Made by a program: the position numbers and the translations under genes. Source: an uncultured Acidobacteriota bacterium (GTDB lineage: Bacteria > Acidobacteriota > Polarisedimenticolia > Polarisedimenticolales > DASRJG01). Taken from it: a stretch of 64,000 bases of DNA. Positions within the stretch are counted from its first letter, which is position 1. Every line of letters starts with the position of its first letter. The notes beneath the pieces were generated by a model. That model did no database searches. It worked only from the letters and a program-made list of their open reading frames with translations, and was not told where the DNA came from. The stretch spans positions 16,944-80,943 of the forward strand of contig CAYLHQ010000013.1 in NCBI GenBank assembly GCA_964383585.1, given 5' to 3'. Below are positions 417 to 57,656 of this stretch, piece after piece.

Positions 417-998
417 TCACTTCCGACCGGTGATCACGAACGCCGCACGACGGTTTTTGGACCAGCAGTCCTCGCGGCTCTCGAAGCAGACCGGGCGTTC
501 CTTCCCGTAGCTGACGGCCCGGAGCGTTCCCGCCGCGACCCCGGACTCCTCGAGGAACCGCTTCGCGGCGGAGGCCCTTCGGTCGCCGAGCGCGATGTTG
601 TACTCGATCGTCCCCCGCTCGTCGCAGTGTCCTTCGATCGTCACCACGAACTGCGGGTGCTCTTTGAGGAACCGGGCGTTCGCCTCGAGACGGGTCCGCG
701 CCTCCGGCCTGAGTTCGGAGCGGTCGTAGTCGAAGTACACGTCGCCCAGAAGGCCCTGCGCGTGCACATAGTCGTTCACCCGTGCCAGGTCTCCCGCGAG
801 CGGGTCGACCTTCTCGGCCGGCGGCTCGGGAGGGGGAGGGGGAGGGGGAGGGGGAGGCGGAGGCGGAGGGGGAGGGGGAGGCGGAGGCGGCGCGGGGGCC
901 GGGGGGGGCGGCTCGGGGATCGGAGCCGGCTCTTTCTTGGCGCATCCGACGGTGACGACCAGGGCCAAGAGAAGCAGGACGAGTACGGACCTTCGCAT
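417..998 (-). CDS. pal: peptidoglycan-associated lipoprotein (OmpA_C domain) with poly-proline linker
   Basis: Internal ATG at 998 of ORF 417..1670. Signal peptide plus lipobox (LVVTVGC). OmpA-like C-terminal domain (VTIEGHCDERGTIEYNIALGDRRA). The upstream part of the ORF is Arg/Gly junk. Confidence 0.88.
   Translation of the reverse strand: MRRSVLVLLLLALVVTVGCAKKEPAPIPEPPPPAPAPPPPPPPPPPPPPPPPPPPPPEPPAEKVDPLAGDLARVNDYVHAQGLLGDVYFDYDRSELRPEARTRLEANARFLKEHPQFVVTIEGHCDERGTIEYNIALGDRRASAAKRFLEESGVAAGTLRAVSYGKERPVCFESREDCWSKNRRAAFVITGRK
828..912 (-). repeat. G-rich (GGGAGG/CGGAGG)n tract on the plus strand encoding 21 consecutive prolines of Pal
   Basis: Codon-by-codon reading of 828-890 gives 21 CCN codons. 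They are flanked by further Pro/Ala codons up to 911. Confidence 0.9.
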
Positions 999-1154: not shown

Positions 1155-2858
1155 TTGGAATCGCTCTATTCTCCCCAGAGCCGGGCTGAGCGCCTGATCG
1201 CCGCCGGACGTGTCGTGCTCGCGGGGGCCTCGCTTCTCGCGGTGTGGCTCGACCCCACGGAACCCGCGAAGAACGCGGGGACGGTCTACTCGCTGATGGC
1301 CGCCTATCTCGCGTTCGGCGGGGTCGTGGCCGTTCTGGTCTGGCGTTCGTGGGCTCCTCTCGGTTTCCAGCGCCTGGTCACTCAGGCGATCGACCTCGCG
1401 ATCTTCACCGTCTTCGTCTTCCTGACGGAGGGGATCTCGAGCCCCTTCATCGCCTTCTACGTCTTCGCGGTGGTCTGCGCCACCGTCCGCTGGCAGTGGA
1501 AGGGAACGCTCTGGACGGCCTCCGCGGCGCTCGCGCTGATCGTCGCGATCGGGCTGCACGTCGCCGAGAACGATCCCCGCGGGAGGCTCGAGCTGAACCC
1601 GTTCATCATCCGGGCCGTCTACCTCGCGGTGGTCGCCGTCCTCCTCGGGTACATGGGCTTCCACGAGCAACGGGCGCGGCTCGAGATCTCGCGCCTCGCC
1701 GCGCGGCCGCGGAGCGAGGGGCCGTCACGGGATCTTCCGGTCGCGGAGCTCCTCGACTGGGCCCGCGAGGCGGTCGGGGCGCCCCGCGCGGCGATCGTCT
1801 GGGAGGAGCGGGAGGAGCCCGGGCCGAGGTTTGCGCGAACCGCTCGGAACGGGATTGCGGTCGAGCGCCTCGCACCCGGGGAGATGCGCCCGCTCGTCGA
1901 CGCCGCCCTCGACGCGGCTTCCTTTCTCACGGACGACGCGTCGGCGTCCCTCGCGACGGTTCTCCGGCGCGACGAACAGGGGAGCCGGCTGTGGCACGGC
2001 CGGCCGCTCCACGAGCGGCTCGTCGAGCGCCTCGCCGCCACCGCCTGCCTCTCGGCGCCGCTCGGGGGGGAGACGTTTTCCGGACGCCTCTTCCTCCTCG
2101 ACAAACGCGGAATGACCTCGGATGACCTGGACCTCGCGGAAGTCGCCGCGGGGGTGGTCGCGGCGCGCCTCGACCAGCACACCTTCGTCGCGAGTCTCGC
2201 GGCGGCGGCGGCGACCGAGGAGCGGATCCGCCTCGCGCGCGACCTGCACGATGGGGTGCTCCAGTCGCTGACGGGGATCGCGCTCCGGCTCGCGGCAGCC
2301 GCGCGGCGACTCGACGAGGACCCGTCCGCCGCGCGACGCGAGCTCGACGACGTGAGGCGGTTGATCGGTCTCGAACAGCGCGACCTCCGGCTCTTCATCC
2401 GCGAGCTCCGTCCCGTCCCTCTCGGGGCGTCTTCCGGCGGCCCGGGCCTCGCGGAGCGCTTGCGGGACCTCGCCTCGAGGGCGGAGATCGAGTGGTCGCT
2501 CTCCACCCGGCTCGAGCTCGCGATCGACGACGCCGGCGTCCCCGACGACGTCGGCCGCGAGATGTACCTCCTCGCCCGGGAGGCCGTGGTGAACGCCGTC
2601 CGGCACGGGGGCGCGACCGAGATCGGCATCGACGTGCAGGGCGGCGCGCAGGGCGGGGTGGATCTGCGCGTGACCGATAACGGTCGTGGGTTCCCCTTTT
2701 CCGGGCGCTTCACCGGGGAGCAACTCGCCGCGGACGAGCGGGGGCCCGCATCGCTCCGCGAGCGGGTGGCGGCGCTCGGCGGGAGCCTCGTCCTGACGAG
2801 CGGTCCCGGCGGGACCGTCCTGGAGATGCGGATCCCGTCGCCGGGTGGAGGACGGTGA
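1155..2858 (+). CDS. membrane sensor histidine kinase, NarX/LiaS type (HisKA_3 + HATPase_c)
   Basis: Multi-TM N-terminus. H-box RLARDLHDGVLQSLTGI. ATPase motifs (REAVVNAVRHG, DNGRGF). The stop overlaps the next gene's start (GTGA). Confidence 0.88.
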   Translation: MESLYSPQSRAERLIAAGRVVLAGASLLAVWLDPTEPAKNAGTVYSLMAAYLAFGGVVAVLVWRSWAPLGFQRLVTQAIDLAIFTVFVFLTEGISSPFIAFYVFAVVCATVRWQWKGTLWTASAALALIVAIGLHVAENDPRGRLELNPFIIRAVYLAVVAVLLGYMGFHEQRARLEISRLAARPRSEGPSRDLPVAELLDWAREAVGAPRAAIVWEEREEPGPRFARTARNGIAVERLAPGEMRPLVDAALDAASFLTDDASASLATVLRRDEQGSRLWHGRPLHERLVERLAATACLSAPLGGETFSGRLFLLDKRGMTSDDLDLAEVAAGVVAARLDQHTFVASLAAAAATEERIRLARDLHDGVLQSLTGIALRLAAAARRLDEDPSAARRELDDVRRLIGLEQRDLRLFIRELRPVPLGASSGGPGLAERLRDLASRAEIEWSLSTRLELAIDDAGVPDDVGREMYLLAREAVVNAVRHGGATEIGIDVQGGAQGGVDLRVTDNGRGFPFSGRFTGEQLAADERGPASLRERVAALGGSLVLTSGPGGTVLEMRIPSPGGGR

Positions 2859-7658: not shown

Positions 7659-7660
7659 AC

Positions 7661-8700
7661 GGGGTCAAGTCTCGTTTCGGGACATTCCTCTAATTCCTGA
7701 GCCCGGCGAGTCAGAGCCCACCGAACGCCCTTGTCTTTCCCCGGTGCGCTCTCCATCTTACGTGCAGGTCCCGGCCTCCCCCACGGAGCCACGATGGCTC
7801 GACCTCTTCGACTGGAAGCCCCCGGCCACTTCTTCCACGTGTTGGCGCGCGGGAACGCCAAGCACCCCATCTTCCTCGACGACCGGGATCGAGAGCGTTT
7901 TTTGGACACCCTCGGCGAAGCCGTGTTCCGCTTCGAGGTGAGATGCCACGCCTACTGCCTCATGGCGAACCACTACCACCTCCTGCTTCAGCCGATGCGG
8001 GAAACCCTGTCGCGCGCGGTGCGCCACTTGAACGGCGTGTACTCGCAGCGGTTCAATCGGAGGCATGAGCGCGTGGGGCATGTGTTCGCGGGACGATTCA
8101 AAAGCCCTCTCGTGGACCGAGAGCATTACCTTCTGGCGCTCTGCCGTTACATCGCGCTCAATCCGGTCCGATCGGGTGCGGTCCGCGAGCCCGCGGACTG
8201 GAAATGGAGCGGTCACCGTGCCCTGGTGGGGATGGATACCGCTCCGGACTGGTTGACCGTGGATGAGGTGCTGCAGGCGTTCGATCCGCGCGGCGACGGT
8301 TTCGCTCGGCATGCCTACGCTCGTTTCGTCGAAGAGGGAATCCGCCCCGACCGCGCGTCGGAGTTCGCCGAGCTCGATCGAGCTGCGGATCTCGGCGGCA
8401 TCCTGGGGCGCTCGGAGTTTATCGCAGGTTTTTCCCGGAGACTCGATCGCTCACGACGCAATCGCGAGCATTCGAAGCGCGAGCGATTCGCGGACCGCCC
8501 CCCGCTCGAGCGGATTCTCGAGGCGAGCGAGTGCGCCGGCCTCGTCGGCCGCATCGAAGCGGCACGGTGCGACCACGGGTATTCGCTGGACGAGATCGGT
8601 CGCGTACTCGGCATTGATCGGAGAACGGTGGTTCGCCTCGTTCGAGCGTCGAAGGTCGAAGGAAGAATTGTCGAAATGTCCCACTTCAAGACTTGACCCC
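7661..8700 (+). mobile_element. RAYT / IS200-like unit bounded by 37-nt imperfect inverted repeats
   Basis: Left 7661-7697 is GGGGTCAAGTCTCGTTTCGGGACATTCCTCTAATTCC. The reverse complement of 8664-8700 is GGGGTCAAGTCTTGAAGTGGGACATTTCGACAATTCT. 25/37 positions are identical, in three blocks. The unit encloses the Y1 transposase gene. Confidence 0.7.
7794..8696 (+). CDS. REP-associated tyrosine transposase (RAYT) / IS200-like Y1 HUH transposase with C-terminal DnaA-C-like HTH
   Basis: HUH motif in CLMANHYHLLLQP. Catalytic Tyr motif LCRYIALNPVRSG. C-terminal GYSLDEIGRVLGIDRRTVVRLV. Noticeably more A/T-ending codons than the neighbouring genes. Confidence 0.85.
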   Translation: MARPLRLEAPGHFFHVLARGNAKHPIFLDDRDRERFLDTLGEAVFRFEVRCHAYCLMANHYHLLLQPMRETLSRAVRHLNGVYSQRFNRRHERVGHVFAGRFKSPLVDREHYLLALCRYIALNPVRSGAVREPADWKWSGHRALVGMDTAPDWLTVDEVLQAFDPRGDGFARHAYARFVEEGIRPDRASEFAELDRAADLGGILGRSEFIAGFSRRLDRSRRNREHSKRERFADRPPLERILEASECAGLVGRIEAARCDHGYSLDEIGRVLGIDRRTVVRLVRASKVEGRIVEMSHFKT

Positions 8701-8749
8701 CAACTCGGTCTCGCGTGTATTCTCCCGAGCAGTCGAGAGGAGGAACGCC

Positions 8750-10408
8750 ATGATTCGTTCGCATTCGGCCGTCCTGGCCCTCGCTCTGACCCTTTCCTGC
8801 GCGGGCCCCGCGGCGCCGCCGCCCGCGGAATCCCGGCCCGAGATCCCGCTCTACGAGGGGCTCGGCCCCCACGTCCGCAAGGTGACGACAGAATCCCCAA
8901 AGGCCCAACGGTACTTCGATCAGGGGCTGAACTTCCTCTATGGCTTCGACCACGACGAGGCGATCCGCGCCTTCAAGAAGGCCGCGGAGATCGATCCGTC
9001 GTGCGCGATGGCCCACTGGGGCGTCGCCTACGCGAACGGGCCCCACATCAACAACGCGGTCGTCCCCGAGTCGCGCGAGAAGGCCGCCTACGAGGCGGTC
9101 GCCGTCGCGCGGCAGCATCTCGACGGGGCGACGGCAATTGAGGAGGCCCTCGTGGAGGCGCTCGCCGCCCGCTACGCCTGGCCGCAGCCGGAGGACCGGG
9201 GGCCGCTCGACCGGGCGTTCGCCGAGGCGATGAAAGGGGTGTGGGCCGCCCACCCGGACGACCCCGACGTCGGCGCACTCTATGCCGAGGCGCTCATGGA
9301 TCTCCACCCGTGGGACCTGTGGAACCACGACGGCACGCCGAAGGAGTGGACGCCGCCGATCGTGGCGCTCCTCGAGGAGGTCCTCGCGAAGGCGCCCGCG
9401 CATCCGCTCGCGCTCCACCTTTACATCCACGCCGTCGAGGCGTCTTCCGCGCCGGGACGGGCCGACGTCGCCGCCGACAGCCTTCGCGACCTGATGCCCG
9501 GCCTCGGCCACATGGTCCACATGCCGTCGCACATCGACGTCCGCCGCGGCCGCTGGGAGGAGGCGATCGTCGCGAACACGAAGGCGATGGCGGCGGACCA
9601 CGCCTACCAGGAGAAGTCCCCCCAGCAGGATTTCTACCGCCTCTACATGGCGCACAACCACCACATGCGCGCCTTCGCCGCGATGATGGTGGGGAAGAGC
9701 GCCCTTGCCCTCGACTCGGTCCGCGAGATGGTCGCCGAGATGCCGGAGGACTGGCTCCGGGAGAACGCCCTGTGGGCCGACGGCTGGGTCGCGATGCCGA
9801 TCGAGGTCCTCATGCGCTTCGGGCGGTGGGAGGAGATCCTCGCGGAGCCGGAGCCGCCCGTGTACCTGCCGCACTCCCGCGCCCTCCGTCATTACGCGCG
9901 CGGGGTCGCGTACGCCGCGACGGACAGGGTCGTCGAGGCGCGCGCGGAGCAGGAGTTGTTTGTCGAGGCGCGCACGAAGGTGTCTCCCGACGCGACGTTC
10001 GGGAACAACAAGTCCTCGGACATCCTCGGGGTTGCCGAGGCTCTCCTCGAAGGGGAGATCCTCTACCGGGCGGGGGAGCAGGAGAAGGGGTTCGCCGTTC
10101 TGCGCGAGGCCGTGAAACGCGAAGACGCCCTCCGCTACGACGAGCCGCCCGACTGGATCCAGCCGGTTCGGCATCCCCTCGGAGCGGCGCTCCTCCAGTC
10201 GGGCCGGTACGAGGAGGCGGAGCAGGTGTTCCGCGAGGATCTCGCGAGACTTCCCGGAAACGGCTGGTCGCTCTTCGGCACGGGCCGCGCGCTGCGTCTC
10301 CAGGGGAAAGGAGCCGAAGCGGTGGTGTACGAGGCACAGTTCACCGACGCGTGGAAAGAGGCGGACGTGAAGATCGCCTCCCCGTGCTTCTGTCAAAGAG
10401 GGGTATAG
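8750..10408 (+). CDS. TPR-repeat lipoprotein
   Basis: GAGAGGAGG Shine-Dalgarno before ATG 8750. Lipobox LTLSC. TPR-like helices (YFDQGLNFLYGFDHDEAIRAFKKAAEIDP). Confidence 0.7.
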   Translation: MIRSHSAVLALALTLSCAGPAAPPPAESRPEIPLYEGLGPHVRKVTTESPKAQRYFDQGLNFLYGFDHDEAIRAFKKAAEIDPSCAMAHWGVAYANGPHINNAVVPESREKAAYEAVAVARQHLDGATAIEEALVEALAARYAWPQPEDRGPLDRAFAEAMKGVWAAHPDDPDVGALYAEALMDLHPWDLWNHDGTPKEWTPPIVALLEEVLAKAPAHPLALHLYIHAVEASSAPGRADVAADSLRDLMPGLGHMVHMPSHIDVRRGRWEEAIVANTKAMAADHAYQEKSPQQDFYRLYMAHNHHMRAFAAMMVGKSALALDSVREMVAEMPEDWLRENALWADGWVAMPIEVLMRFGRWEEILAEPEPPVYLPHSRALRHYARGVAYAATDRVVEARAEQELFVEARTKVSPDATFGNNKSSDILGVAEALLEGEILYRAGEQEKGFAVLREAVKREDALRYDEPPDWIQPVRHPLGAALLQSGRYEEAEQVFREDLARLPGNGWSLFGTGRALRLQGKGAEAVVYEAQFTDAWKEADVKIASPCFCQRGV

Positions 10409-10537
10409 GGGACATTCCGCTTTTAGAAAAAGTAGAAAAAGGGGACAGGCAACTTTTCCCAGCCGCCCGGGTTGCGGTACTTCCCGGGCGGCTGAGAAAA
10501 GGTGCCTGTCCCCTTTTTCTAAAAGCGGAATGTCCCC
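10408..10537. repeat. 130-bp AT-rich nested palindromic element (REP/MITE-like), termini GGGGACATTCCGCTTTTA
   Basis: Paired segments of 24+13+7+11 bp with 2 mismatches, a 9-nt bulge (duplicated TAGAAAAAG) and an 11-nt loop. It spans exactly from the G of the upstream TAG stop to the C of the downstream CTA (minus-strand TAG). Confidence 0.9.
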
Positions 10538-11820
10538 TAAGCCTTGATCGTTTCCAACCCATGGCCTCGCGGGCTCATCTCTTCGCGTCTGAGCATCCAC
10601 GCGAAAAAGAAGCCCAGGAAACCGAGCACGGAGAAGATCCACATTCCGAGCGCGTACCCGCCGGGGTTCTCGGCCGACGCGTGGGAGACGTCGTTCGCCC
10701 AGCCGATCGCCTGGTTCATTCCGGCGAGGCCGATCTGCTGGATGAGCGTCATGAGGGCGTAGGCGCTGCCGAGCCGCGTCGGGTCGACGATGTAGGCGAC
10801 CGACGGCCACATCACGGCCGGGATCAACGAGAACGCGACTCCCATGAGCGCCATCGGAACGATCGGCGGGATGTCGGTGTACACGAGCATGAGGTAGACC
10901 GGCATCAGGAGGAACGAGCCGACCATCATGAAGAGCGACCGCTTCCCGACGCGATCGACCAAAAGACCGAACAGCGGGGTCGCGAACATCGCGGCGAAGG
11001 GAAGGGCGCTGTTGAGCGCGCCGGCCGCCTCGCGCGTCATCCCGTGTCCTTCGATGAAGAACTTGATCGCGAACGATCGGAAGGGAAAAATCGCCGAGTA
11101 AAACGTGATGCAGAGAGCGACGATGAACCAGTACGAGCGGGAGAAGGAGAAGATCTCGCTCCAGACGAGTCGGTCCATCTCGCCCGCCGCCCCCAGGGAG
11201 TACCTCCGTTCCGCATGCTTCTCGAACGCCCAGTAAAGCACTCCGGCGACGACGCACAGGAGTCCGATCGCGGCTCCGATCCAGAGCGGACCCTGCCAGC
11301 CGCTCGCGTACGCGCGGCCGGCCCAGGTGGGGGAATTGTCGGCGGCGACCGACCCGAGGCGGGCGATCGTCAGGTTGACGCCGAAGGCGAAGCTCAGCTC
11401 CTTTCCGCGAAACCACTTGGCGAGCCCCGTCGTGACGGCGACGATCAGCGGCTCCGCCCCGATCCCGAGGAGAACGCGCCCCGCCGCCATCACGGGAAAC
11501 TCCGGGGAGATGGCGGTCACGACGCCGGCGACGGCGCAGATCGTGCCGAAAAGGACCGTCGAGAGGGCGGCCCCGAACCGGTCGATCAGGACGCCTCCGA
11601 TCAGCAGAACCACGATCGCCGCGACGCTGTAAACGGAGTAGAGCTGCCCGATCTGCGAATCGCTGAAGCCGAGGTCGGACTTGAGCATGTCCGCGACGGG
11701 GGCGATCGTGTCGTAGACGTAGTAATTCCCGAACATCGCGAGGCTGACGAGCAGGAGGACCGTCCACCGGAAGACCGTGGGCGGAGGAGGGCGAAGGGAA
11801 GGATCTGCGGTTCCGTTCAT
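10537..11820 (-). CDS. MFS transporter
   Basis: About 12 predicted TM segments. MFS-like loop motif GGVLIDRFG. Confidence 0.85.
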   Translation of the reverse strand: MNGTADPSLRPPPPTVFRWTVLLLVSLAMFGNYYVYDTIAPVADMLKSDLGFSDSQIGQLYSVYSVAAIVVLLIGGVLIDRFGAALSTVLFGTICAVAGVVTAISPEFPVMAAGRVLLGIGAEPLIVAVTTGLAKWFRGKELSFAFGVNLTIARLGSVAADNSPTWAGRAYASGWQGPLWIGAAIGLLCVVAGVLYWAFEKHAERRYSLGAAGEMDRLVWSEIFSFSRSYWFIVALCITFYSAIFPFRSFAIKFFIEGHGMTREAAGALNSALPFAAMFATPLFGLLVDRVGKRSLFMMVGSFLLMPVYLMLVYTDIPPIVPMALMGVAFSLIPAVMWPSVAYIVDPTRLGSAYALMTLIQQIGLAGMNQAIGWANDVSHASAENPGGYALGMWIFSVLGFLGFFFAWMLRREEMSPRGHGLETIKA

Positions 11821-14581: not shown

Positions 14582-15769
14582 CTATCCGCGGCCATGCTCG
14601 CGATGGAACGTCTCTCCCCGAATACGCGCGCGGAGGGCCCGCCAGAGGTCGTACACACCTCCGACCCCCGCGGTTCCGCCCAGGATCGTCTCGAAGCGGG
14701 CGTGGTCTCGCGAGATCGACGCGCGTGCGAGGGCGTCCATCGCCGACTCGAGGCCCGCCGCGACCTCGGCCGTCCACGCCCTCGGTACGCGCGCGGCCCC
14801 GTCTTCGACGACGATCGGCTCCCCCCACAGGCAGAGTGCTTCCGGAGTGCGCTCCTCCCAGAAGGCGTACTCGATCGCGAGCGGGAGGATGGTCCCGCCG
14901 CGCAACCGTCGGGCGGCGTGGCCCACCCCGTCGAGGAGGGTGACCGGGCGCTCCCGGACGTCCGTGAAGCGTCCCTGGGGTGTGATCCAAAGGGCGGTGC
15001 CTGGCCGCGCGAAGATCTCCTCGGTCGCACGAAGGAACGCCGCGGCGCCGCGCCGGGTCCCCGGCTCCACGCCGAAGAAGCCGATCCTCGCGAAGAACCG
15101 GTAACGGGCGAGCATCGCCGCCTCGATCGGGGCGTAATGCTCCCGCTCAGGCAGATACCTCTCGGCCAGAATCAGCCCGACGAGAGGGTCCCACCATCCG
15201 GGATGGTTCGTGGCGACGAGAAGCGACCCGTCGGCGTGGATCGAGGGGAATCCCGGCTGCGCGACGCGCAACGCGTGGAAGCTCCTGCGAACGTAACGGC
15301 GCGCGTACCACCGGAACCACGCAAGGAGTCGCAGCGTGACGCGAATCGTGGGGACGGGAGGATCGAGGGACGTCGCCGAAGTCGCGGTGGGATTTGGGGA
15401 TTCCCTTTCCGCGCCGATCGGAACCTCCGGCTCGCGACTTCGCGGCACGGGCTTCGCGGCGGAACTCTCCGACCCAGCGCAACTTCGGCCCCGTGCGCGG
15501 CGCGAGTTCTCCCCACCGTTCGCGTCACCTTGAAGGAGCGGCAGCGTGACGCGAATCGTGGGGACGGGAGGATCGAGGGACGTCGCCGAAGTCGCGGTGG
15601 GATTTGGGGATTCCCTTTCCGCGCCGATCGGAACCTCCGGCTCGCGACTTCGCGGCACGGGCTTCGCGGCGGAACTCTCCGACCCAGCGCAACTTCGGCC
15701 CCGTGCGCGGCGCGAGTTCTCCCCACCGTTCGCGTCACCTTGAAGGAGCGGGGATTGAGGAATTTTCAT
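14582..15769 (-). CDS. PlsC-type acyltransferase (CrtO-like candidate) carrying a 140-codon in-frame repeat insertion after codon 6
   Basis: NHPGWWD acyltransferase motif and the following domain. The ATG at 15769 directly abuts the TAA of the upstream gene. Residues 7-146 are two identical 70-aa low-complexity units encoded by the 210-bp tandem repeat. Confidence 0.7.
   Translation of the reverse strand: MKIPQSPLLQGDANGGENSRRARGRSCAGSESSAAKPVPRSREPEVPIGAERESPNPTATSATSLDPPVPTIRVTLPLLQGDANGGENSRRARGRSCAGSESSAAKPVPRSREPEVPIGAERESPNPTATSATSLDPPVPTIRVTLRLLAWFRWYARRYVRRSFHALRVAQPGFPSIHADGSLLVATNHPGWWDPLVGLILAERYLPEREHYAPIEAAMLARYRFFARIGFFGVEPGTRRGAAAFLRATEEIFARPGTALWITPQGRFTDVRERPVTLLDGVGHAARRLRGGTILPLAIEYAFWEERTPEALCLWGEPIVVEDGAARVPRAWTAEVAAGLESAMDALARASISRDHARFETILGGTAGVGGVYDLWRALRARIRGETFHREHGRG
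15331..15540. repeat. 210-bp tandem repeat, copy 1 (MITE-like unit with 19-nt terminal inverted repeats)
   Basis: Nucleotide-identical to 15541-15750. Internal TIR: GTGACGCGAATCGTGGGGA (15336-15354) versus TCCCCACCGTTCGCGTCAC (15510-15528), 17/19 complementary. Confidence 0.92.
15541..15750. repeat. 210-bp tandem repeat, copy 2
   Basis: Perfect copy of 15331-15540. AAGGAG occurs at 15323-15328, 15533-15538 and 15743-15748. Confidence 0.92.
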
Positions 15770-15787
15770 TTATCGAGGAATGTCCCC
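15751..15787 (-). repeat. AT-rich junction element related to the RAYT left end (GGGGACATTCCTC...ATTCCTCA)
   Basis: The minus strand reads GGGGACATTCCTCGATAAATGAAAATTCCTCAATCCCC. Compare the RAYT left flank GGGACATTCCTCTAATTCCTGA. It supplies the last 5 codons and TAA of one gene and the ATG plus 6 codons of the next. Confidence 0.65.
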
Positions 15788-17290
15788 ATCCGCGGCGTCG
15801 GCCGCGATCCAGCCGGACATCAGGACCATCGGCATGCCGGGGCCGGGGTGGGCGGCGCCGCCGGAGAGGTAGAGCCCGCGGACGTCGGGGCTCCGGTTGA
15901 TCGGCTTGAACGCCCCCGTGAGGCGGCCGTGGCTCGCGAGGCCGTAGATCGCCCCCTCGAGGACCGAGTAGCGCTCGTGGATGTCCGCGGGTGTGAGCAC
16001 GCGCTCGACCTCGATGCGCTCCTCGATGTCCTCGCATCCTGCCGTGCGCTTCATCTTGTCGAGGATCGTCCTCCGGTAGGCCGGGAGCATCGTCTTCCAG
16101 TCGTGCCCCGCACGGAGGTGCGGCGTGTGGACCAAGACGTAGAGGGCCTCCCCTCCCTCGGGAGCGACCTCGGGCTCGGTGAGGGAAGGAGCGGCGACGT
16201 AGCAGGTCGGGTCGGGGGCGGGCTTCCCGCGGCGGTAGATCGCGTCGAACTCTTCCTCCGGGTCGCGGGAGAAGACGAAGTTGTGGTGGAGGAGGTGCTC
16301 GTAGCGTTCCCGGAGGCCGAGGTAGAGGACGACCCCCGAGCAGGCGGGCTCGTACGCGCGCCTCCGCTCGAAGCGCTCCGCCGCCTTTCCCCCCACCAGC
16401 TCCCGGTGCGTTCGAACGGCATCCATGTTCGACACGACCACGTCGAATGGATGGGCACGCCCGTCGTCGGTTTCGATTCCGGTCGCGCGGCCCGAGTCCA
16501 CCGTGATCCGCCGGACCCCGGCACCCTTGCGGTACTCGACGCCGAGGCGGCTTCCCAGATCGACGAGCGCGCGGGGGACCGCTCCGGTTCCGCCACGCGG
16601 GTACCAGACCCCTTCCCCGGCCTGCATGCTCGCGATGCCCGCGAGGACCGCGGGCGCGCGGTACGGGTCGGAGCCGATGTACTGAGTGTAGTGGTCGAGC
16701 ATCTGAGCGGCGCGCGCGTCGGGAACGTGCGACCGCACGGTCGCGGCGTACGTGCTCCACGACCGGAGGGCGAAGACGTCCTTGACCGTCCCGCCGCGGA
16801 ACGTCTCCTTCGCGCGGAACATGTCGGAGACCGACCCGATCGGTCTGTAGAAGAAGTAGCGGTCGGAGATGTCGTGGAGCCGCCGGGCGAGCGTTTGGAA
16901 CCGGACGAACCCCTCCCCCGCGCCGGTTCCCGGGGCGAGCCGGTCGAGGGAGGCCGCCATCTTCGCGACGTCCTCCTCGAGGTCGAGGACGGTGCCGTCC
17001 TCGAAGAAGCAGCGCCACTGCGGGTCGAGACGAACGAGCTCGAGGTCGGTCTCGAGCGGTGTTCGCGCCTCGGCCCAGATCCGGCGGAGCACCGACGGCA
17101 TCGTGAGGATCGTCGGCCCCATGTCGAAGCGGTAGCCCCCCTCCTCGAGGACGGCGGCCTTCCCCCCGAGCCAGCCGTTCCTCTCGAAGACGGTCACCTC
17201 GAAACCCCGGGCTGCGAGGACCGCGGCGGCGGAAAGCCCGCCGAGCCCGGCGCCGACCACGGCGGCGCGTCTCTTCTTGCCGTTCTTCAT
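15770..17290 (-). CDS. CrtI-family FAD-dependent carotenoid desaturase/oxidase (CrtP-like candidate)
   Basis: N-terminal dinucleotide fold AAVVGAGLGGLSAA. CrtI-family C-terminus LYLSGGAAHPGPGMPMV. ATGA overlap with the upstream aldehyde dehydrogenase. Confidence 0.85.
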   Translation of the reverse strand: MKNGKKRRAAVVGAGLGGLSAAAVLAARGFEVTVFERNGWLGGKAAVLEEGGYRFDMGPTILTMPSVLRRIWAEARTPLETDLELVRLDPQWRCFFEDGTVLDLEEDVAKMAASLDRLAPGTGAGEGFVRFQTLARRLHDISDRYFFYRPIGSVSDMFRAKETFRGGTVKDVFALRSWSTYAATVRSHVPDARAAQMLDHYTQYIGSDPYRAPAVLAGIASMQAGEGVWYPRGGTGAVPRALVDLGSRLGVEYRKGAGVRRITVDSGRATGIETDDGRAHPFDVVVSNMDAVRTHRELVGGKAAERFERRRAYEPACSGVVLYLGLRERYEHLLHHNFVFSRDPEEEFDAIYRRGKPAPDPTCYVAAPSLTEPEVAPEGGEALYVLVHTPHLRAGHDWKTMLPAYRRTILDKMKRTAGCEDIEERIEVERVLTPADIHERYSVLEGAIYGLASHGRLTGAFKPINRSPDVRGLYLSGGAAHPGPGMPMVLMSGWIAADAADGDIPR

Positions 17291-35197: not shown

Positions 35198-37282
35198 TCA
35201 CGGAGGCGGCGCGCCCCCGGCGGCGCCCACCGTGAGACCCGCGACACGGTCGAGATCCACCGTCTTCCCGAGCAGCACCAGGTGGTCTCCGGGTCCGATC
35301 TTCCAGTCGGGTCCGACCGGTGCGAACTCGCGCTTCAGCTCGCCCTCGGTGCGCCGAACCGCAAGGACGAAGACCCCGTACTTCCCGTACGGGTCGGCGT
35401 CGCCGAGCGTCTTGCCTTTCCAGTGCTCCGGGACTGCGACCTCGCGGATGTTCAGGTCTCCCGCGCGGCGCGCGCTCTCGGCTTCCCCCGCACTCCCCGC
35501 CTCGAGGAAACGTGCGAGGAGCACGCGGCGGCGGACGACCTCCCGGTCGAGCGCGGCGACGACGTCCCTTCGCGCGACGGTTCCGAGGAGACGGTCGGGG
35601 TCCTGGGCGCTGACGACCGGAAGCTGCGCCAGCTCGAGACGGGAGAACCGGCGCATCACGTCGTCGAGCGGGGTGCGCGGCGTCAGGCGCGGGACGTCGC
35701 GTACGAGGTCCATGGCGGTCCTCTCGCGCCGGAGCGAAGGGTCTCCCGCGACCTGGAAGGCGTCGCGGAGGTCGATCGCTCCGACGAGCCGGTCCTGGGC
35801 GTCGAGCGCGTAGACGGCAGTCTGGCGGGTGGAGCCGAACCGGTCCAGTACCTCGCCGAGAGGGGCGTCCGCGCGGACCGTCATCGGGTCCGTGCGGATC
35901 AGGTCCTCGGCGCGGAGCGTGGCGAGGGCCATTTCCTCGAAGGCGAGGTCGAAGTCGATGCCGCGGCGCCTCAACGACTCGGTGTAGATGGAATCCCGCC
36001 GGAGCTGCCTCGCGACCCAGGTCGAGGTCACGACGACCGCCGCGAGCGGCATGACCGAGCCGTAGTTCTGGCTCGTCTCGAAGACGATGACGAGGGCCGT
36101 GATCGGCGCGAACGTCGTAGACGCGATCGCGGCGCTCATCCCACCGAGCGCCCAGAAGACCGAGGAGACGCCGAGGGCGGGGAAGACCGCTTCGACGCCG
36201 AGCCCGAACAGGGTCCCGCCGGCCGCCCCGACGAGGAGGGCGGGGGTGAACACTCCGCCCGATCCTCCCGACCCGAGCGAGGCCGAGGTCGCCGCGATCT
36301 TCGCGAGCACGAGGGGGAGGAGCATCGCGGGCAGGACCCCGCCGGAGACCACCTCCCGCACCGCGTCGTAGCCGTTCCCCCAGACCTCGGGGATGAAGAC
36401 GGCGAGGATGCCCACCACGAGCCCCCCGAGCGCCGTCTTCACCGGGAGCGGCGCCCGCAGGCGGGCCGCCGCGCTCGACACCCCCTCGATCCCCGAGCGG
36501 AGCAGGAGGCCGGTCCACGCGACCAGGGCGCCGAGGAGGGCGAAGAGCGGGAGGGAGAGGAGGGACGGGGCGTGCTCCGACGGGACCGGGTAGAGTGGAG
36601 CCGAACCGAACGCGCCCCACGAGATCATCGTCGACGTGACGGCGGACATCACGACCGGGCCGAAGACCTCGAGAGCGAAGTTCCCGTGCACCACCTCCAT
36701 CACGAACATCGCGGCGCCGAGCGGTGCGTTGTACGAGGCGGCCATCGCGGCCGCAACGCCGCACCCGATCAGGATCCGCCGCCGCTCGACCGGGGCCTTC
36801 AGCTTCGAAGCGAGCCGCGAGGCGGCGGCCGCGGCGATCTGCACGATCGGTCCTTCCCTCCCGACCGAGCCTCCGGTCGCGTTGAGGAAGACCGAGGCCA
36901 CCGACTTCCCGACCGTCCGACCGAGATGGAGGCGCCCCGACCCGCGCAGGGAGACCGCCTCCATGATCTCGGAGACTCCCTCTCCGGTGGAACCCGTTCT
37001 TCTCCGGATCGAGGAGACGATGAGTCCCGCGACGAGTCCCCCGGCGGCGGGTCCCAGGATGCGCCGAGGGATCCCGAGCCTTCCGGCGACCTCGAGCGGC
37101 TCGCCCGTGTCCCAGAAGACGAGGGCCTGGAAGCCGAGCCCGAGATACCGGACCCCCACGGCGACGAGCGACCCGAGGAGACCGGCCCCGACGACGAGCG
37201 CGATCGCGTACATCCGCTCGTCGGTCCGGAAGCGGATCCGAACCCGTTGCCAGAGGTCGGCCGCTCGGCGCAAAGGGGTCAA
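35198..37282 (-). CDS. ClC chloride channel with C-terminal CBS pair and TrkA-C-like domain
   Basis: GSVGREGP, GLPAM-like and GGVFTP selectivity motifs. CBS-like repeats. TTG start in a TTGA overlap with the upstream stop. Confidence 0.88.
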   Translation of the reverse strand: MTPLRRAADLWQRVRIRFRTDERMYAIALVVGAGLLGSLVAVGVRYLGLGFQALVFWDTGEPLEVAGRLGIPRRILGPAAGGLVAGLIVSSIRRRTGSTGEGVSEIMEAVSLRGSGRLHLGRTVGKSVASVFLNATGGSVGREGPIVQIAAAAASRLASKLKAPVERRRILIGCGVAAAMAASYNAPLGAAMFVMEVVHGNFALEVFGPVVMSAVTSTMISWGAFGSAPLYPVPSEHAPSLLSLPLFALLGALVAWTGLLLRSGIEGVSSAAARLRAPLPVKTALGGLVVGILAVFIPEVWGNGYDAVREVVSGGVLPAMLLPLVLAKIAATSASLGSGGSGGVFTPALLVGAAGGTLFGLGVEAVFPALGVSSVFWALGGMSAAIASTTFAPITALVIVFETSQNYGSVMPLAAVVVTSTWVARQLRRDSIYTESLRRRGIDFDLAFEEMALATLRAEDLIRTDPMTVRADAPLGEVLDRFGSTRQTAVYALDAQDRLVGAIDLRDAFQVAGDPSLRRERTAMDLVRDVPRLTPRTPLDDVMRRFSRLELAQLPVVSAQDPDRLLGTVARRDVVAALDREVVRRRVLLARFLEAGSAGEAESARRAGDLNIREVAVPEHWKGKTLGDADPYGKYGVFVLAVRRTEGELKREFAPVGPDWKIGPGDHLVLLGKTVDLDRVAGLTVGAAGGAPPP

Positions 37283-38188: not shown

Positions 38189-38719
38189 ATGCGACTTCGT
38201 ACATGGGCTCTCGCGGCATTCGGTTTCGGCGCCGCCTTCGCCGCCGACGGGGCGGGGGGGGCGGCCGGGAAGGTGCAGGCCCCGTCGTTCGAGCTCCGAG
38301 GCTCGGACGGCGCGATCCACCGGCTATCCGACCACGCCGGCAAGCGTGCGGTCGTCCTCGCCTGGTTTCCGAAAGCGTTCACCGGCGGTTGCACGGCCGA
38401 ATGCAAGTCGCTCCGTGAGAGCGGCGCCGCGATCCGTGAGTTCGAGGTTGCCCTGTACGCGGCAAGTTGTGACGACGCGGAAACGAACCGGAAATTCGCC
38501 GCGTCGCTCGATCTCGACTACCCGATCCTCAGCGATCCCGGCTGCGCGATTGCCCGCGCCTACGGGGTGGCGACGGAGGGGTCGAGCTACGCCCAGCGCG
38601 TCACCTTCTACATCGGCCCGGACGGGACGATTCTCGACGTCGACCGGTCCGTGAAAGCCTCGACTGCCGGAAACGACATCGCCGAACGCCTCACTGCCCT
38701 GGAGGTCAAGAGGAAATAG
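38189..38719 (+). CDS. secreted peroxiredoxin (Bcp/AhpC-TSA family)
   Basis: Signal peptide, then WFPKAFTGGCTAEC peroxidatic Cys motif. Confidence 0.85.
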   Translation: MRLRTWALAAFGFGAAFAADGAGGAAGKVQAPSFELRGSDGAIHRLSDHAGKRAVVLAWFPKAFTGGCTAECKSLRESGAAIREFEVALYAASCDDAETNRKFAASLDLDYPILSDPGCAIARAYGVATEGSSYAQRVTFYIGPDGTILDVDRSVKASTAGNDIAERLTALEVKRK

Positions 38720-38871
38720 GGGACATTCCGCTTTTACTTCTAAAGGTTGAATAGAAAAAGCGGGAGCGAAAAAGGGACTGGCACCTTTTCCGGTCTCCGG
38801 AAAAGGTGCCAGTCCCTTTTTCGCTCCCGCTTTTTCTATTCAACCTTTAGAAGTAAAAGCGGAATGTCCCC
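38719..38871. repeat. 153-bp perfect palindromic AT-rich element (75-bp arms, 3-nt loop), termini GGGGACATTCCGCTTTTA
   Basis: Base-by-base pairing was checked from 38719/38871 inward to 38793/38797 with no mismatch. It fills the gap between convergent genes, starting with the G of the TAG stop. Confidence 0.93.
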
Positions 38872-57336: not shown

Positions 57337-57338
57337 AC

Positions 57339-57382
57339 GGGGACAGGTTACTTTTTTTGGGCTCAAAAAGTAACCTGTCCCC
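57339..57382. repeat. 44-bp perfect hairpin GGGGACAGGTTACTTTTT-loop-AAAAAGTAACCTGTCCCC, related to the inner module of the 10408 element
   Basis: 18-bp perfect stem with an 8-nt loop. Compare GGGGACAGGCAACTTTTCC inside 10408-10537. The loop contains the stop of the upstream small ORF. Confidence 0.85.
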
Positions 57383-57656
57383 GATGCCTTCGGCGGTGCC
57401 CCGCGATCTCCCGGCGGCGGATCGCGAGGACGGCGCGGAGCCCGGTGAAGAGCCAGACCACCGCGAGACACGCGAACCCCGACTTCGAAACGATCCCGCC
57501 GAACGGGTGGAGGGCCATGGGAAAGCCGGCGCTTCCACCCACGAGCGCGCCGACTCCGTAGACGATGGCACGCGGCCGTTCTTCGCCTCGGACACTCTCG
57601 TGAGCGAGCCCGGCACGTCCGATCGTCGAACCGGCCGGCCGATGCTCGGGCGCCAT
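57363..57656 (-). CDS. small membrane protein (about 97 aa), C-terminus and stop encoded by the hairpin element
   Basis: High GC3. Two hydrophobic helices (IVYGVGALVGGSAGFPMAL, GFACLAVVWLFTGLRAVLAI). The last codons GGG GAC AGG TTA CTT TTT TGA lie in the element. The start is uncertain (57656 or 57689). Confidence 0.5.
   Translation of the reverse strand: MAPEHRPAGSTIGRAGLAHESVRGEERPRAIVYGVGALVGGSAGFPMALHPFGGIVSKSGFACLAVVWLFTGLRAVLAIRRREIAGHRRRHRGQVTF

Follow-up and report, generated by a model that had tools for sequence, protein, structure and literature searches.

TIRtrons, or TIRYT elements, combine RAYT-like genes, whose products carry a C-terminal helix-turn-helix (HTH), with terminal inverted repeats (TIRs) sharing the motif GGGGWSAS; an Acidobacteria subgroup has been described, and the TIRs are dispersed as singles, dimers and clusters (PMC3733652, PMC6006769). 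This family, with dispersed TIR dimers and a way of working like that of REPIN-RAYT, is the closest known system to the repeat presented here. The subject of this work is element 1, a nested palindrome of 130 nt between two converging genes in a 64,000-nt stretch of DNA (hereafter the window) from an uncultured Acidobacteriota bacterium (assembly GCA_964383585.1, contig CAYLHQ010000013.1, positions 16,944 to 80,943). Element 1 is probably a RAYT/TIRYT-associated palindromic repeat, of the non-coding class formed by repetitive extragenic palindromes (REP), REPINs and TIR dimers. In two unrelated genomes, Y1 transposase genes were found in physical association with its tips. The kind of element, the GGGGWSAS ends and the sharing of stop codons are already published, and current views are not overturned by these findings. 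Absent from the literature consulted are this particular tip, its cross-phylum occurrence beside two Y1 clades 38% identical, concentric composites A(B) of a hairpin of one type (A) around one of another (B), and a pair of 39-nt and 153-nt alleles.

The likeness to TIRtrons (Di Nocera, De Gregorio & Rocco 2013, PMC3733652; subclass 2.1, Quentin et al. 2018, PMC6006769) lies in a Y1 HUH protein that exceeds classical RAYTs in length and has a putative HTH-like region at its C-terminus, in a gene placed within long terminal inverted repeats starting GGGG[AT][CG]A, in copies dispersed singly, as inverted dimers and in clusters, of which some are self-complementary, and in the well-defined Acidobacteria group of such genes. 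With REP/REPIN-RAYT systems (Nunvar 2010; Bertels & Rainey 2011, PMC3116915; TnpA-REP, PMC3479197) the repeat has in common two inverted units forming a long extragenic hairpin, a cognate Y1 gene that is repeat-flanked (here at loci L009 and L030), single-copy and syntenic in related strains, and copies that prefer the 3' side of genes and whose termini can provide TAG stops. REPs indeed favor the space behind co-directional and converging open reading frames (ORFs), and the ends of GTAG REPs frequently provide the TAG stop (Di Nocera et al. 2013, PMC3733652). At the Y1 gene of the window, no more than a degenerate subterminal match was found.

Escherichia coli bacterial interspersed mosaic elements (BIMEs) are a mosaic in which REP types (Y, Z1 and Z2) alternate in orientation and are accompanied by linker motifs, and some of them attenuate transcription. 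The mosaic of differing repeat modules is seen here too; BIMEs, however, are side-by-side arrays, whereas the present modules are concentric, with one hairpin within the loop of another. Miniature inverted-repeat transposable elements (MITEs) such as Correia/NEMIS, ERIC and RUP resemble our repeat in their size of 70-300 bp, their terminal inverted repeats, their location beside coding regions and their RNA hairpins affecting neighbours (PMC3733652). Those elements are DDE-linked and make target duplications (TA for Correia), whereas here the genes are Y1 genes and no consistent duplication is seen.

Structure of element 1 and its relatives in the window

The tip type is called A and the GGGGACAGG type B. 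Element 1, its parts and the two flanking genes are as follows.

10408..10537, unstranded: element 1, nested palindromic repeat of 130 nt, from repeat finder and folding; 10406-10539 with flanking TA/TA
10408..10432, plus strand: left outer arm, A-type tip GGGGACATTCCGCTTTTA followed by GAAAAAG, pairing with 10513-10537
10513..10537, minus strand: right outer arm, A-type tip in reverse complement
10424..10441, plus strand: tandem duplication of the 9-nt unit TAGAAAAAG, a bulge of the left arm
10436..10518, unstranded: the inner hairpin, of B type, GGGGACAGGCAAC...GGTGCCTGTCCCC; A5 at 5', T5 at 3', loop at 10472-10482
8750..10408 (ORF 8693..10408), plus strand: tetratricopeptide (TPR)-repeat protein gene; the third base of its TAG stop, G10408, is common to element 1
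10537..11820, minus strand: major facilitator superfamily (MFS) transporter gene; TAG stop (plus-strand CTA), of which C10537 is common to element 1

The sequence order of element 1 is GGGGACATTCCGCTTTTAGAAAAAG-TAGAAAAAG-GGGACAGGCAAC-TTTTCCC-AGCCGCCCGGG-[TTGCGGTACTT]-CCCGGGCGGCT-GAGAAAA-GGTGCCTGTCCC-CTTTTTCTAAAAGCGGAATGTCCCC. In the repeat finder, the outer arms (10406-10432 and 10513-10539, 27 nt) showed 100% complementarity, which corresponds to 25 bp within the element and TA on either flank. The inner arms (10433-10471 and 10483-10521, 39 nt) were complementary to 95%, with two mismatches, GGCAAC/GGCACC and TTTTCC/TTTTCT, and enclose the core AGCCGCCCGGG with its 11-nt loop TTGCGGTACTT (10472-10482). 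A first-pass annotation of the window had described arms, mismatches, core and loop in the same way; only its outer count of 24 pairs has to be corrected, to 25. The bulge that it had noted in the left arm was found again, with TAGAAAAAG twice in tandem at 10424-10432 and 10433-10441, and so was the sharing of both stop codons, the element starting on the third base of the TPR TAG and ending on the first base of the MFS CTA. Folded as RNA, element 1 reached -101.2 kcal/mol (z = -15.7; none of 200 shuffles was equal), and as single-stranded DNA (ssDNA) -65.4 kcal/mol (z = -16.2), in confirmation of the ends and fold annotated between the convergent genes.

The 18-nt tip GGGGACATTCCGCTTTTA has four exact occurrences in the window (10408 plus, 10520 minus, 38719 plus, 38854 minus), against 0.01 expected from shuffles; the G+C content of the window is 69.6%. 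Two of the four bound element 2, on which the same tips had already been noticed. Three further features belong to the family.

38719..38871, unstranded: element 2, a 75+75 palindrome without mismatch around a loop of 3 nt; its 18-nt tips are the same, and its core, GGGACTGGCACCTTTTCCGG, is B-like
57338..57383, unstranded: element 3, a simple B-type hairpin, GGGGACAGGTTACTTTTT, of 46 nt with a 19-bp perfect stem
15770..15787, minus strand: solo A-tip variant GGGGACATTCCTCGATAA, which makes up the final five codons (GDIPR) and the TAA stop of a gene of the amine-oxidase family (minus strand, 15770-17290)

Element 2 (153 nt, fold z = -25) also lies between converging genes, AhpC/TSA and peptidase M1: it provides the G of the AhpC/TSA TAG, and its other end is 1 nt short of the TGA of peptidase M1. 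Elements 1 and 2 are no assembly artefacts, since both loci were reproduced by independent assemblies. The element 1 locus was identical in an independent Logan assembly, contig Ga0484859_0000198 of the Joint Genome Institute (JGI) corresponds to the window, and the palindrome of element 2 was read across its loop in a second JGI sample. The motif GGGGACA-N5-CTTTT, common to element 3, the tips and the inner modules of elements 1 and 2, was matched 8 times, against 0.07 expected. The inventory thus comprises two A-type elements, one B-type element and one solo tip in the 64 kb read, which is the scope of all copy counts for this genome.

Element 3, of the GGGGACAGG type, contains the TGA of a minus-strand DUF2306 gene, and its arm holds the last 7 codons of that gene. 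It lies between two co-directional genes, and the ATG of the RibD_C gene begins 2 nt past the hairpin, which would therefore occlude any RibD_C ribosome-binding site. A 16-mer of the solo tip GGGGACATTCCTCGATAA also heads a 64-nt hairpin at a Woeseiaceae locus (L003, 4931-4994). A near match, GGGGTCAAGCCT at 37275, was judged to be due to chance.

The tip in other genomes and beside Y1 transposase genes

Outside the window, tip GGGGACATTCCGCTTTTA bounds about 25 more hairpins, of 36-204 nt, in Woeseiaceae and Acidobacteria metagenome-assembled genomes (MAGs) and in metagenome contigs. The first-pass annotation had taken element 1 for a modular insertion-type repeat, as opposed to an ancient structure without further copies and conserved in distant relatives. 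In agreement with the former, copies with the same tips were found in the window, in related strains and in other phyla, and distant TPR orthologues end in TGA without an element. A scan of one genome per species gave 14 loci with the 18-mer. About half of them were lone matches, consistent with chance (by our own arithmetic, about 17 matches of an 18-mer are expected in 596 Gb), and the remaining ones were tip-bounded hairpins in three Woeseiaceae MAGs and one Acidobacteria MAG. Copies in one Woeseiaceae MAG occurred on at least 4 contigs. The metagenome scan yielded 24 additional loci, with tip hairpins in about 14 metagenome contigs, the smallest of 36 nt. Eight of the metagenome elements were about 100 nt long; their arms of 30 nt read GGGGACATTCCGCTTTTATCTTCAATTCC, their flanks AAAA/TTTT, and their centres varied and were not palindromic. 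Single tips without a partner arm (L002, L004, L008, L012-L014, L031-L034, L045 and L051) were taken as chance.

The association with Y1 transposases was observed directly at two loci. At L009, a 207-aa RAYT-like gene (ORF 139-762) lies between tip hairpins at 89-139 and 790-840. At L030, two exact 18-mers in inverted orientation, at 601-618 (plus) and 1472-1489 (minus), stand 870 nt apart, and between them lies a Y1 ORF of 236 aa that is of the same type as the L009 gene. The TAG stop of the L009 gene (139-141) comes from the flanking hairpin (CGA TAG, followed by GGGAC), and the TIRYT cassette of locus L028 (2897-2912) begins 1 nt past the TAG of an NDK gene (GTAGC, followed by GGGGTCAGG), so that the abutment of stop codons extends to transposase cassettes.

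In partner arms not selected by the search, the first 11 nt of the tip were almost invariant and positions 12-18 varied. This near-invariance across phyla points to a protein recognition site. Homologues of the TPR and M1 proteins of the window, 60-74% identical, bear the labels Thermoanaerobaculia, Polarisedimenticolaceae or Acidobacteria, so that one and the same tip is present both in Acidobacteriota-like genomes and in gammaproteobacterial ones. Covariation between arms (5 symmetric versus 24 asymmetric changes) is uninformative because every locus was ascertained through an exact 18-mer on one arm. Many tip-bearing contigs break inside the element or about 100 nt from it, as expected of repeats or long palindromes. 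The family thereby explains recurrent contig breaks in metagenome assemblies of these genomes, and GGGGACATTCC...GGAATGTCCCC is a sequence handle for annotating it in the poorly studied Acidobacteriota-like and Woeseiaceae genomes. A 17-mer scan of viral contigs gave only 4 single matches, in low-GC contigs and with no partner arm, which we took as chance. Plasmids gave no blastn match to element 1, and a text search of the literature for GGGGACATTCC returned unrelated primers and viral sequences only.

A Y1 transposase gene is also present in the window, 1.7 kb upstream of element 1 and just before the TPR gene.

7794..8696, plus strand: gene of a Y1 HUH transposase of RAYT/TIRYT type (from Pfam, NCBIfam and profile comparison), 300 aa, with a weak HTH-like signal at the C-terminus
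7661..8700, plus strand: TIRtron-like cassette of 1,040 bp with 12-bp TIRs GGGGTCAAGTCT at 7661-7672 (plus) and 8689-8700 (minus), absent in the relative L021
7679-7688 and 8673-8682: subterminal repeats of the cassette, GGGACATTCC and GAAATGTCCC, inside the TIRs

The protein scored 42.9 bits against Pfam Y1_Tnp (cutoff 23) and 72.9 bits against NCBIfam REP_Tyr_transpos, slightly under the cutoff of 80; the JGI annotation calls it RayT. Residues N59, H60, H62 and Y119 were invariant in an alignment of 19 sequences. With the single sequence, a PDB search gave no match and a family profile was required. This profile matched E. coli TnpA-REP (PDB 4ER8) with E = 2.3e-4, the HUH motif and the catalytic Tyr being aligned: NHyHLL and YvvlNPvR stood opposite EHMHCI and YIYINPVK of TnpA-REP. 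Residues 254-286 gave sub-threshold scores for both HTH_23 (20.7 bits, cutoff 24.6) and HTH_38 (20.0 bits, cutoff 27), and precomputed matches to HTH_23/HTH_38 are on record for several Y1 homologues.

The cassette ends are laid out as GGGGTCAAGTCT-N6-GGGACATTCC, with the subterminal GGGACATTCC and GGGACATTTC 6 nt in from each end, and the boundaries GGGGTCAAGTCT were conserved in an alignment with three related RAYT-bearing strains. In L021 (GCA_964628935.1), at about 87% nucleotide identity, the cassette is exactly missing, window 7660-8709 being 30 nt there (L021 9931-9960). No target duplication was visible at the cassette in comparison with L021 and the three RAYT-bearing strains. Clean presence or absence, bounded by GGGGTCAAGTCT, suggests that the cassette behaved like an insertion sequence, either moving itself or being lost with precision; in this polymorphism the window differs from REP/REPIN-RAYT systems. 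The cassette starts 2 nt past the TGA of thyX (Thy1).

At L028, the homologue of the window Y1 protein, 49% identical, has inverted ends GGGGTCAGGTCTCTCWTTGACGCAA, with GGGGTCAGGTCT... at both ends. GGGGTCAA fits 7 of the 8 positions of GGGGWSAS, and both tip types match this TIRYT motif at 7-8 of 8 positions. The subterminal GGGACATTCC-TCT-AATTCC of the cassette resembles a shortened form of the 30-nt arm GGGGACATTCCGCTTTTATCTTCAATTCC of the metagenome copies. Among window and metagenome copies, the dispersed hairpins match only this subterminal GGGACATTCC(...TCT..AATTCC) part of the cassette, and the outer 12-mer GGGGTCAAGTCT has no further copy in the window. On these copies, the hairpins would stand apart from TIRtrons: those seen are not copies of the outermost TIR GGGGTCAAGTCT but match the subterminal GGGACATTCC...AATTCC and the flanks of another, shorter RAYT type (L009, L030), and their tip is common to Acidobacteriota-like and Woeseiaceae genomes.

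Proposed mechanism, alleles and nesting

In element 1, which we take to be a RAYT/TIRYT-associated repeat, the outer layer consists of the inverted A tips GGGGACATTCCGCTTTTA and the inner layer of a related B hairpin (GGGGACAGGCACCTTTTC...). The arms would fold to a hairpin on ssDNA, for example on the lagging-strand template, and a Y1 enzyme would bind the hairpin foot with the adjacent 5' bases as guide, by analogy with the biochemistry of IS200/IS605 and TnpA-REP (PMC3479197). It would cut and rejoin without target-site duplication, as do IS200/IS605 and E. coli TnpA-REP. Copies would survive where they are harmless, right after the stops of converging or co-directional genes, and the triplet before the hairpin foot, TAG or TAA, would act as or replace the stop of the gene. 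Long perfect arms are probably kept symmetric through template switching within the palindrome, and they may also collapse by microhomology-mediated deletion, which would explain the 39-nt and 153-nt alleles at the 38719 site.

These alleles were found by comparison with three assemblies of one strain (L060, L061 and L063; 89-92% nucleotide identity), which carry GGGGACATTCCGCTTTTACTTTCAAAGCGGAATGTCCCC, a 39-nt tip hairpin of -28 kcal/mol, at the exact site of element 2. Element 2 of the window is 114 nt longer (38746-38859), between ...CTTCTAAAG and CGGAATG.... A microhomology deletion collapsing the long palindrome would be the simplest reading of this difference, since AAAG is present at both of its ends and it is precisely at this point that the short allele's right tip breaks off; an insertion followed by symmetrisation could also have produced it. 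At this site, the tips and the location persist while the interior turns over. In a search for an empty site of element 2, L026 (61% identity) was syntenic only in part and had another converging gene. Together with the TIRYT cassette present or absent at 87% nucleotide identity, and with one tip beside two Y1 clades only 38% identical, the 39-nt and 153-nt alleles at one site constitute natural experiments that are largely lacking in the RAYT/TIRYT field.

Concentric organization is not limited to element 1. L044 and L048 overlap by 44 nt and give one nested palindrome of 204 nt with the layers GGGGACATTCCGCTTTTA, GGGGACAGAGAAAA and GGGGACAGGCACCTTTTCGG, and three composites (130, 153 and 204 nt) have A outside, B (GGGGACAGGCACCTTTTC core) inside and unrelated spacers. 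In the Woeseiaceae MAG locus L015 (414-528), a full A hairpin (451-497) lies within the loop of another. Given the three A(B) composites and this A-within-A case, nesting is a recurrent trait of the family. It differs in this from TIRtrons, for which the concentric A(B) composite is undescribed, and from REP/REPIN-RAYT systems in that the spacers are highly variable or hold a second hairpin family. A metagenome scan for the nested pattern (tip, N10-40, GGGACWGGCAMC) gave no match. On metagenome contig L039, a 39-nt hairpin of GGGGACAG type (42-80) and an element of tip type are 20 nt apart; the module types thus co-occur beyond the window.

A more daring reading of the nesting would be that the GGGGACATTCC hairpins are a cross-phylum, Y1-mobilised family preferring the single-stranded apex of resident hairpins, which would build concentric 'onion' palindromes of the kinds A(B), A(A) and A(x(B)). 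The same hairpins might insert right after stops and regenerate TAG or TAA, leaving the host protein unchanged. The 11-nt foot would then be conserved across phyla because two Y1 clades, 38% identical, read the same site. We put this forward as a speculation with only a modest chance of being right. More generally, the specific enzyme, the nesting mechanism and a role as terminator are what we infer from the features described.

Flanking bases, terminator shape and rival explanations

The first-pass annotation had left a choice between a TA-type target and landing on stop codons; of these, the sharing of stop codons was borne out. Of 21 junctions between an arm and the 3' end of a gene, 11 lay at most 6 nt from a stop codon; four shared the G of TAG, three of these in the window, and five further ones read TAA or TGA plus 1-3 nt. 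Such landing is a published REP property (PMC3733652). The family hence flags gene ends whose stops, and even last codons, derive from repeat DNA. In E. coli, REPs lying within about 15 nt of a stop codon are reported to stall termination (Liang et al. 2015). Among 78 arms, the 4-mer before GGGAC was AAAG in 24, ATAG in 5, GTAG in 4 and TTAG in 1, NTAG making up 10; the tip ends in the window read ATAG, TTAG, ATAG and GATG. In the window, stop codons are met by a TAG-ended variant of an A-rich foot. With AAAG in 24 and GTAG in 4 of 78 arms, the family is not a canonical GTAG-tagged REP, and here again it differs from REP/REPIN-RAYT systems, in which the 5' GTAG is the consensus.

Several observations weigh against a RAYT/TIRYT-associated repeat. 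The Y1 cassette of the window ends in GGGGTCAAGTCT and not in an A tip. The window protein has only 38% identity to the RAYT type that exact tips flank (L009, L030), a type that was not found in the 64-kb window. We can therefore only infer which enzyme acts on element 1. As just described, the consensus of the family differs from the canonical 5' GTAG of REPs, and copy number was seen in 64 kb of this genome only. Elements 1 and 2 have in common only the tips and the B core and are therefore not recent copies of each other. No transposition event of element 1 was sighted directly, and the check for empty sites in relatives, as proposed in the annotation, did not produce a true one for element 1. 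In L020 (TPR protein 90% identical), TAG-GGGGACATTCCGTTTTTTGGGAAAGGGG stands at the position of element 1 and the contig ends 27 nt into this variant element; the L021 contig stops 5 nt past the TPR stop codon. Farther TPR orthologues, at 71-82% identity, have the same final residue (…CQ[RKQ]GV), a TGA stop and no element, and their neighbours differ, so that they are not syntenic. A simple terminator scan, finally, called only a sub-stem of element 1 and not the full hairpin, because loop and stem exceed the limits of the scan.

The shape of a terminator is nevertheless there. The inner hairpins followed by U5 reached -66.8 and -70.0 kcal/mol on the two strands of element 1 and -51.4 kcal/mol in element 2, and they satisfy the sequence criterion for a bidirectional intrinsic terminator, i.e. 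a GC-rich stem-loop with a U-run on both strands. Judging from the sequence, both flanking genes probably have their converging transcripts terminated or stabilised by the inner B hairpins. The outer right arm, lying beyond the U-run, would often stay untranscribed. One could go further and see in element 1 a bidirectional Rho-independent terminator that evolved in place, with all resemblances due to convergent selection for an A-run, a GC-stem and a T-run. Elements 1 and 2 each lie between converging genes, as such terminators do, the GC-rich inner hairpins of both are very stable and have A5 and T5 at their sides, and in most of the family the 5' flank is rich in A and the 3' flank in T. Convergence, however, leaves unexplained an identical 18-nt tip and an invariant 11-nt core across loci and phyla; ordinary intrinsic terminators are locus-specific and lack outer arms of an 18-nt sequence conserved across loci and phyla. 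Nor is there a T-run beyond the outer arms of elements 1 and 2. Other converging pairs in the window, such as 3499/3504, have no hairpin at all, element 3 sits within an operon-like gene pair without a T-run, and the tips flank transposase genes. We therefore consider a terminator of purely local origin improbable.

An origin as MITE from a DDE transposon, IS630/Tc1-mariner-like, with TA duplicated at insertion, is less probable still. It would account for the TA on both flanks of element 1, through which the palindrome runs, and for the TA followed by GGGG at three of the four window ends. But TA is self-complementary, so that a TA flank is indistinguishable from a palindrome that is merely longer. 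At element 2, TA stands on the left side and AT on the other, AAAG and not TA is the commonest flank in the 78 arms, and the genes between inverted tips are Y1 transposases, no DDE transposase being associated with the tips; the insertion of the Y1 cassette relative to L021 also went without target duplication. On these grounds the TA-type target of the first-pass annotation finds no support. Least credible in our eyes is that element 1 belongs to some other class of recombination site or structured non-coding RNA, be it an integron attC site, a CRISPR-like repeat, or a small RNA or riboregulator. The fold of element 1 is very stable, and attC sites, too, are palindromes of about this size, though imperfect, and often adjoin or overlap the stops of cassette genes. 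The tips, however, lack the core sites GTTRRRY/RYYYAAC, and the flanking genes, which are convergent, are conserved genes of the chromosome that have orthologues in relatives, with no cassette array and no nearby integrase. Rfam covariance models at gathering score had no match across the whole window, and near-perfect arms of 25-75 bp are unlike functional RNAs. The RAYT/TIRYT-associated repeat thus remains the reading that we prefer.

Three minor observations concern the surroundings. In a more distant relative (L022, 7370-7440), three copies of another GGGGTC-type repeat, GGGGTCTGACCCCGTGTTGCA, stand directly past the stop of the TPR orthologue. In the window, a 210-nt unit occurs twice in tandem at 15336-15755 and only once in the JGI contig copy (L016), an assembly or strain difference in copy number. 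On a 2.46-Mb Thermoanaerobaculia contig (L024, 19961-21653), about 8 kb from the TPR orthologue, lies an unrelated type I-E-like CRISPR adaptation module with Cas1, Cas2 and a CRISPR_assoc gene.

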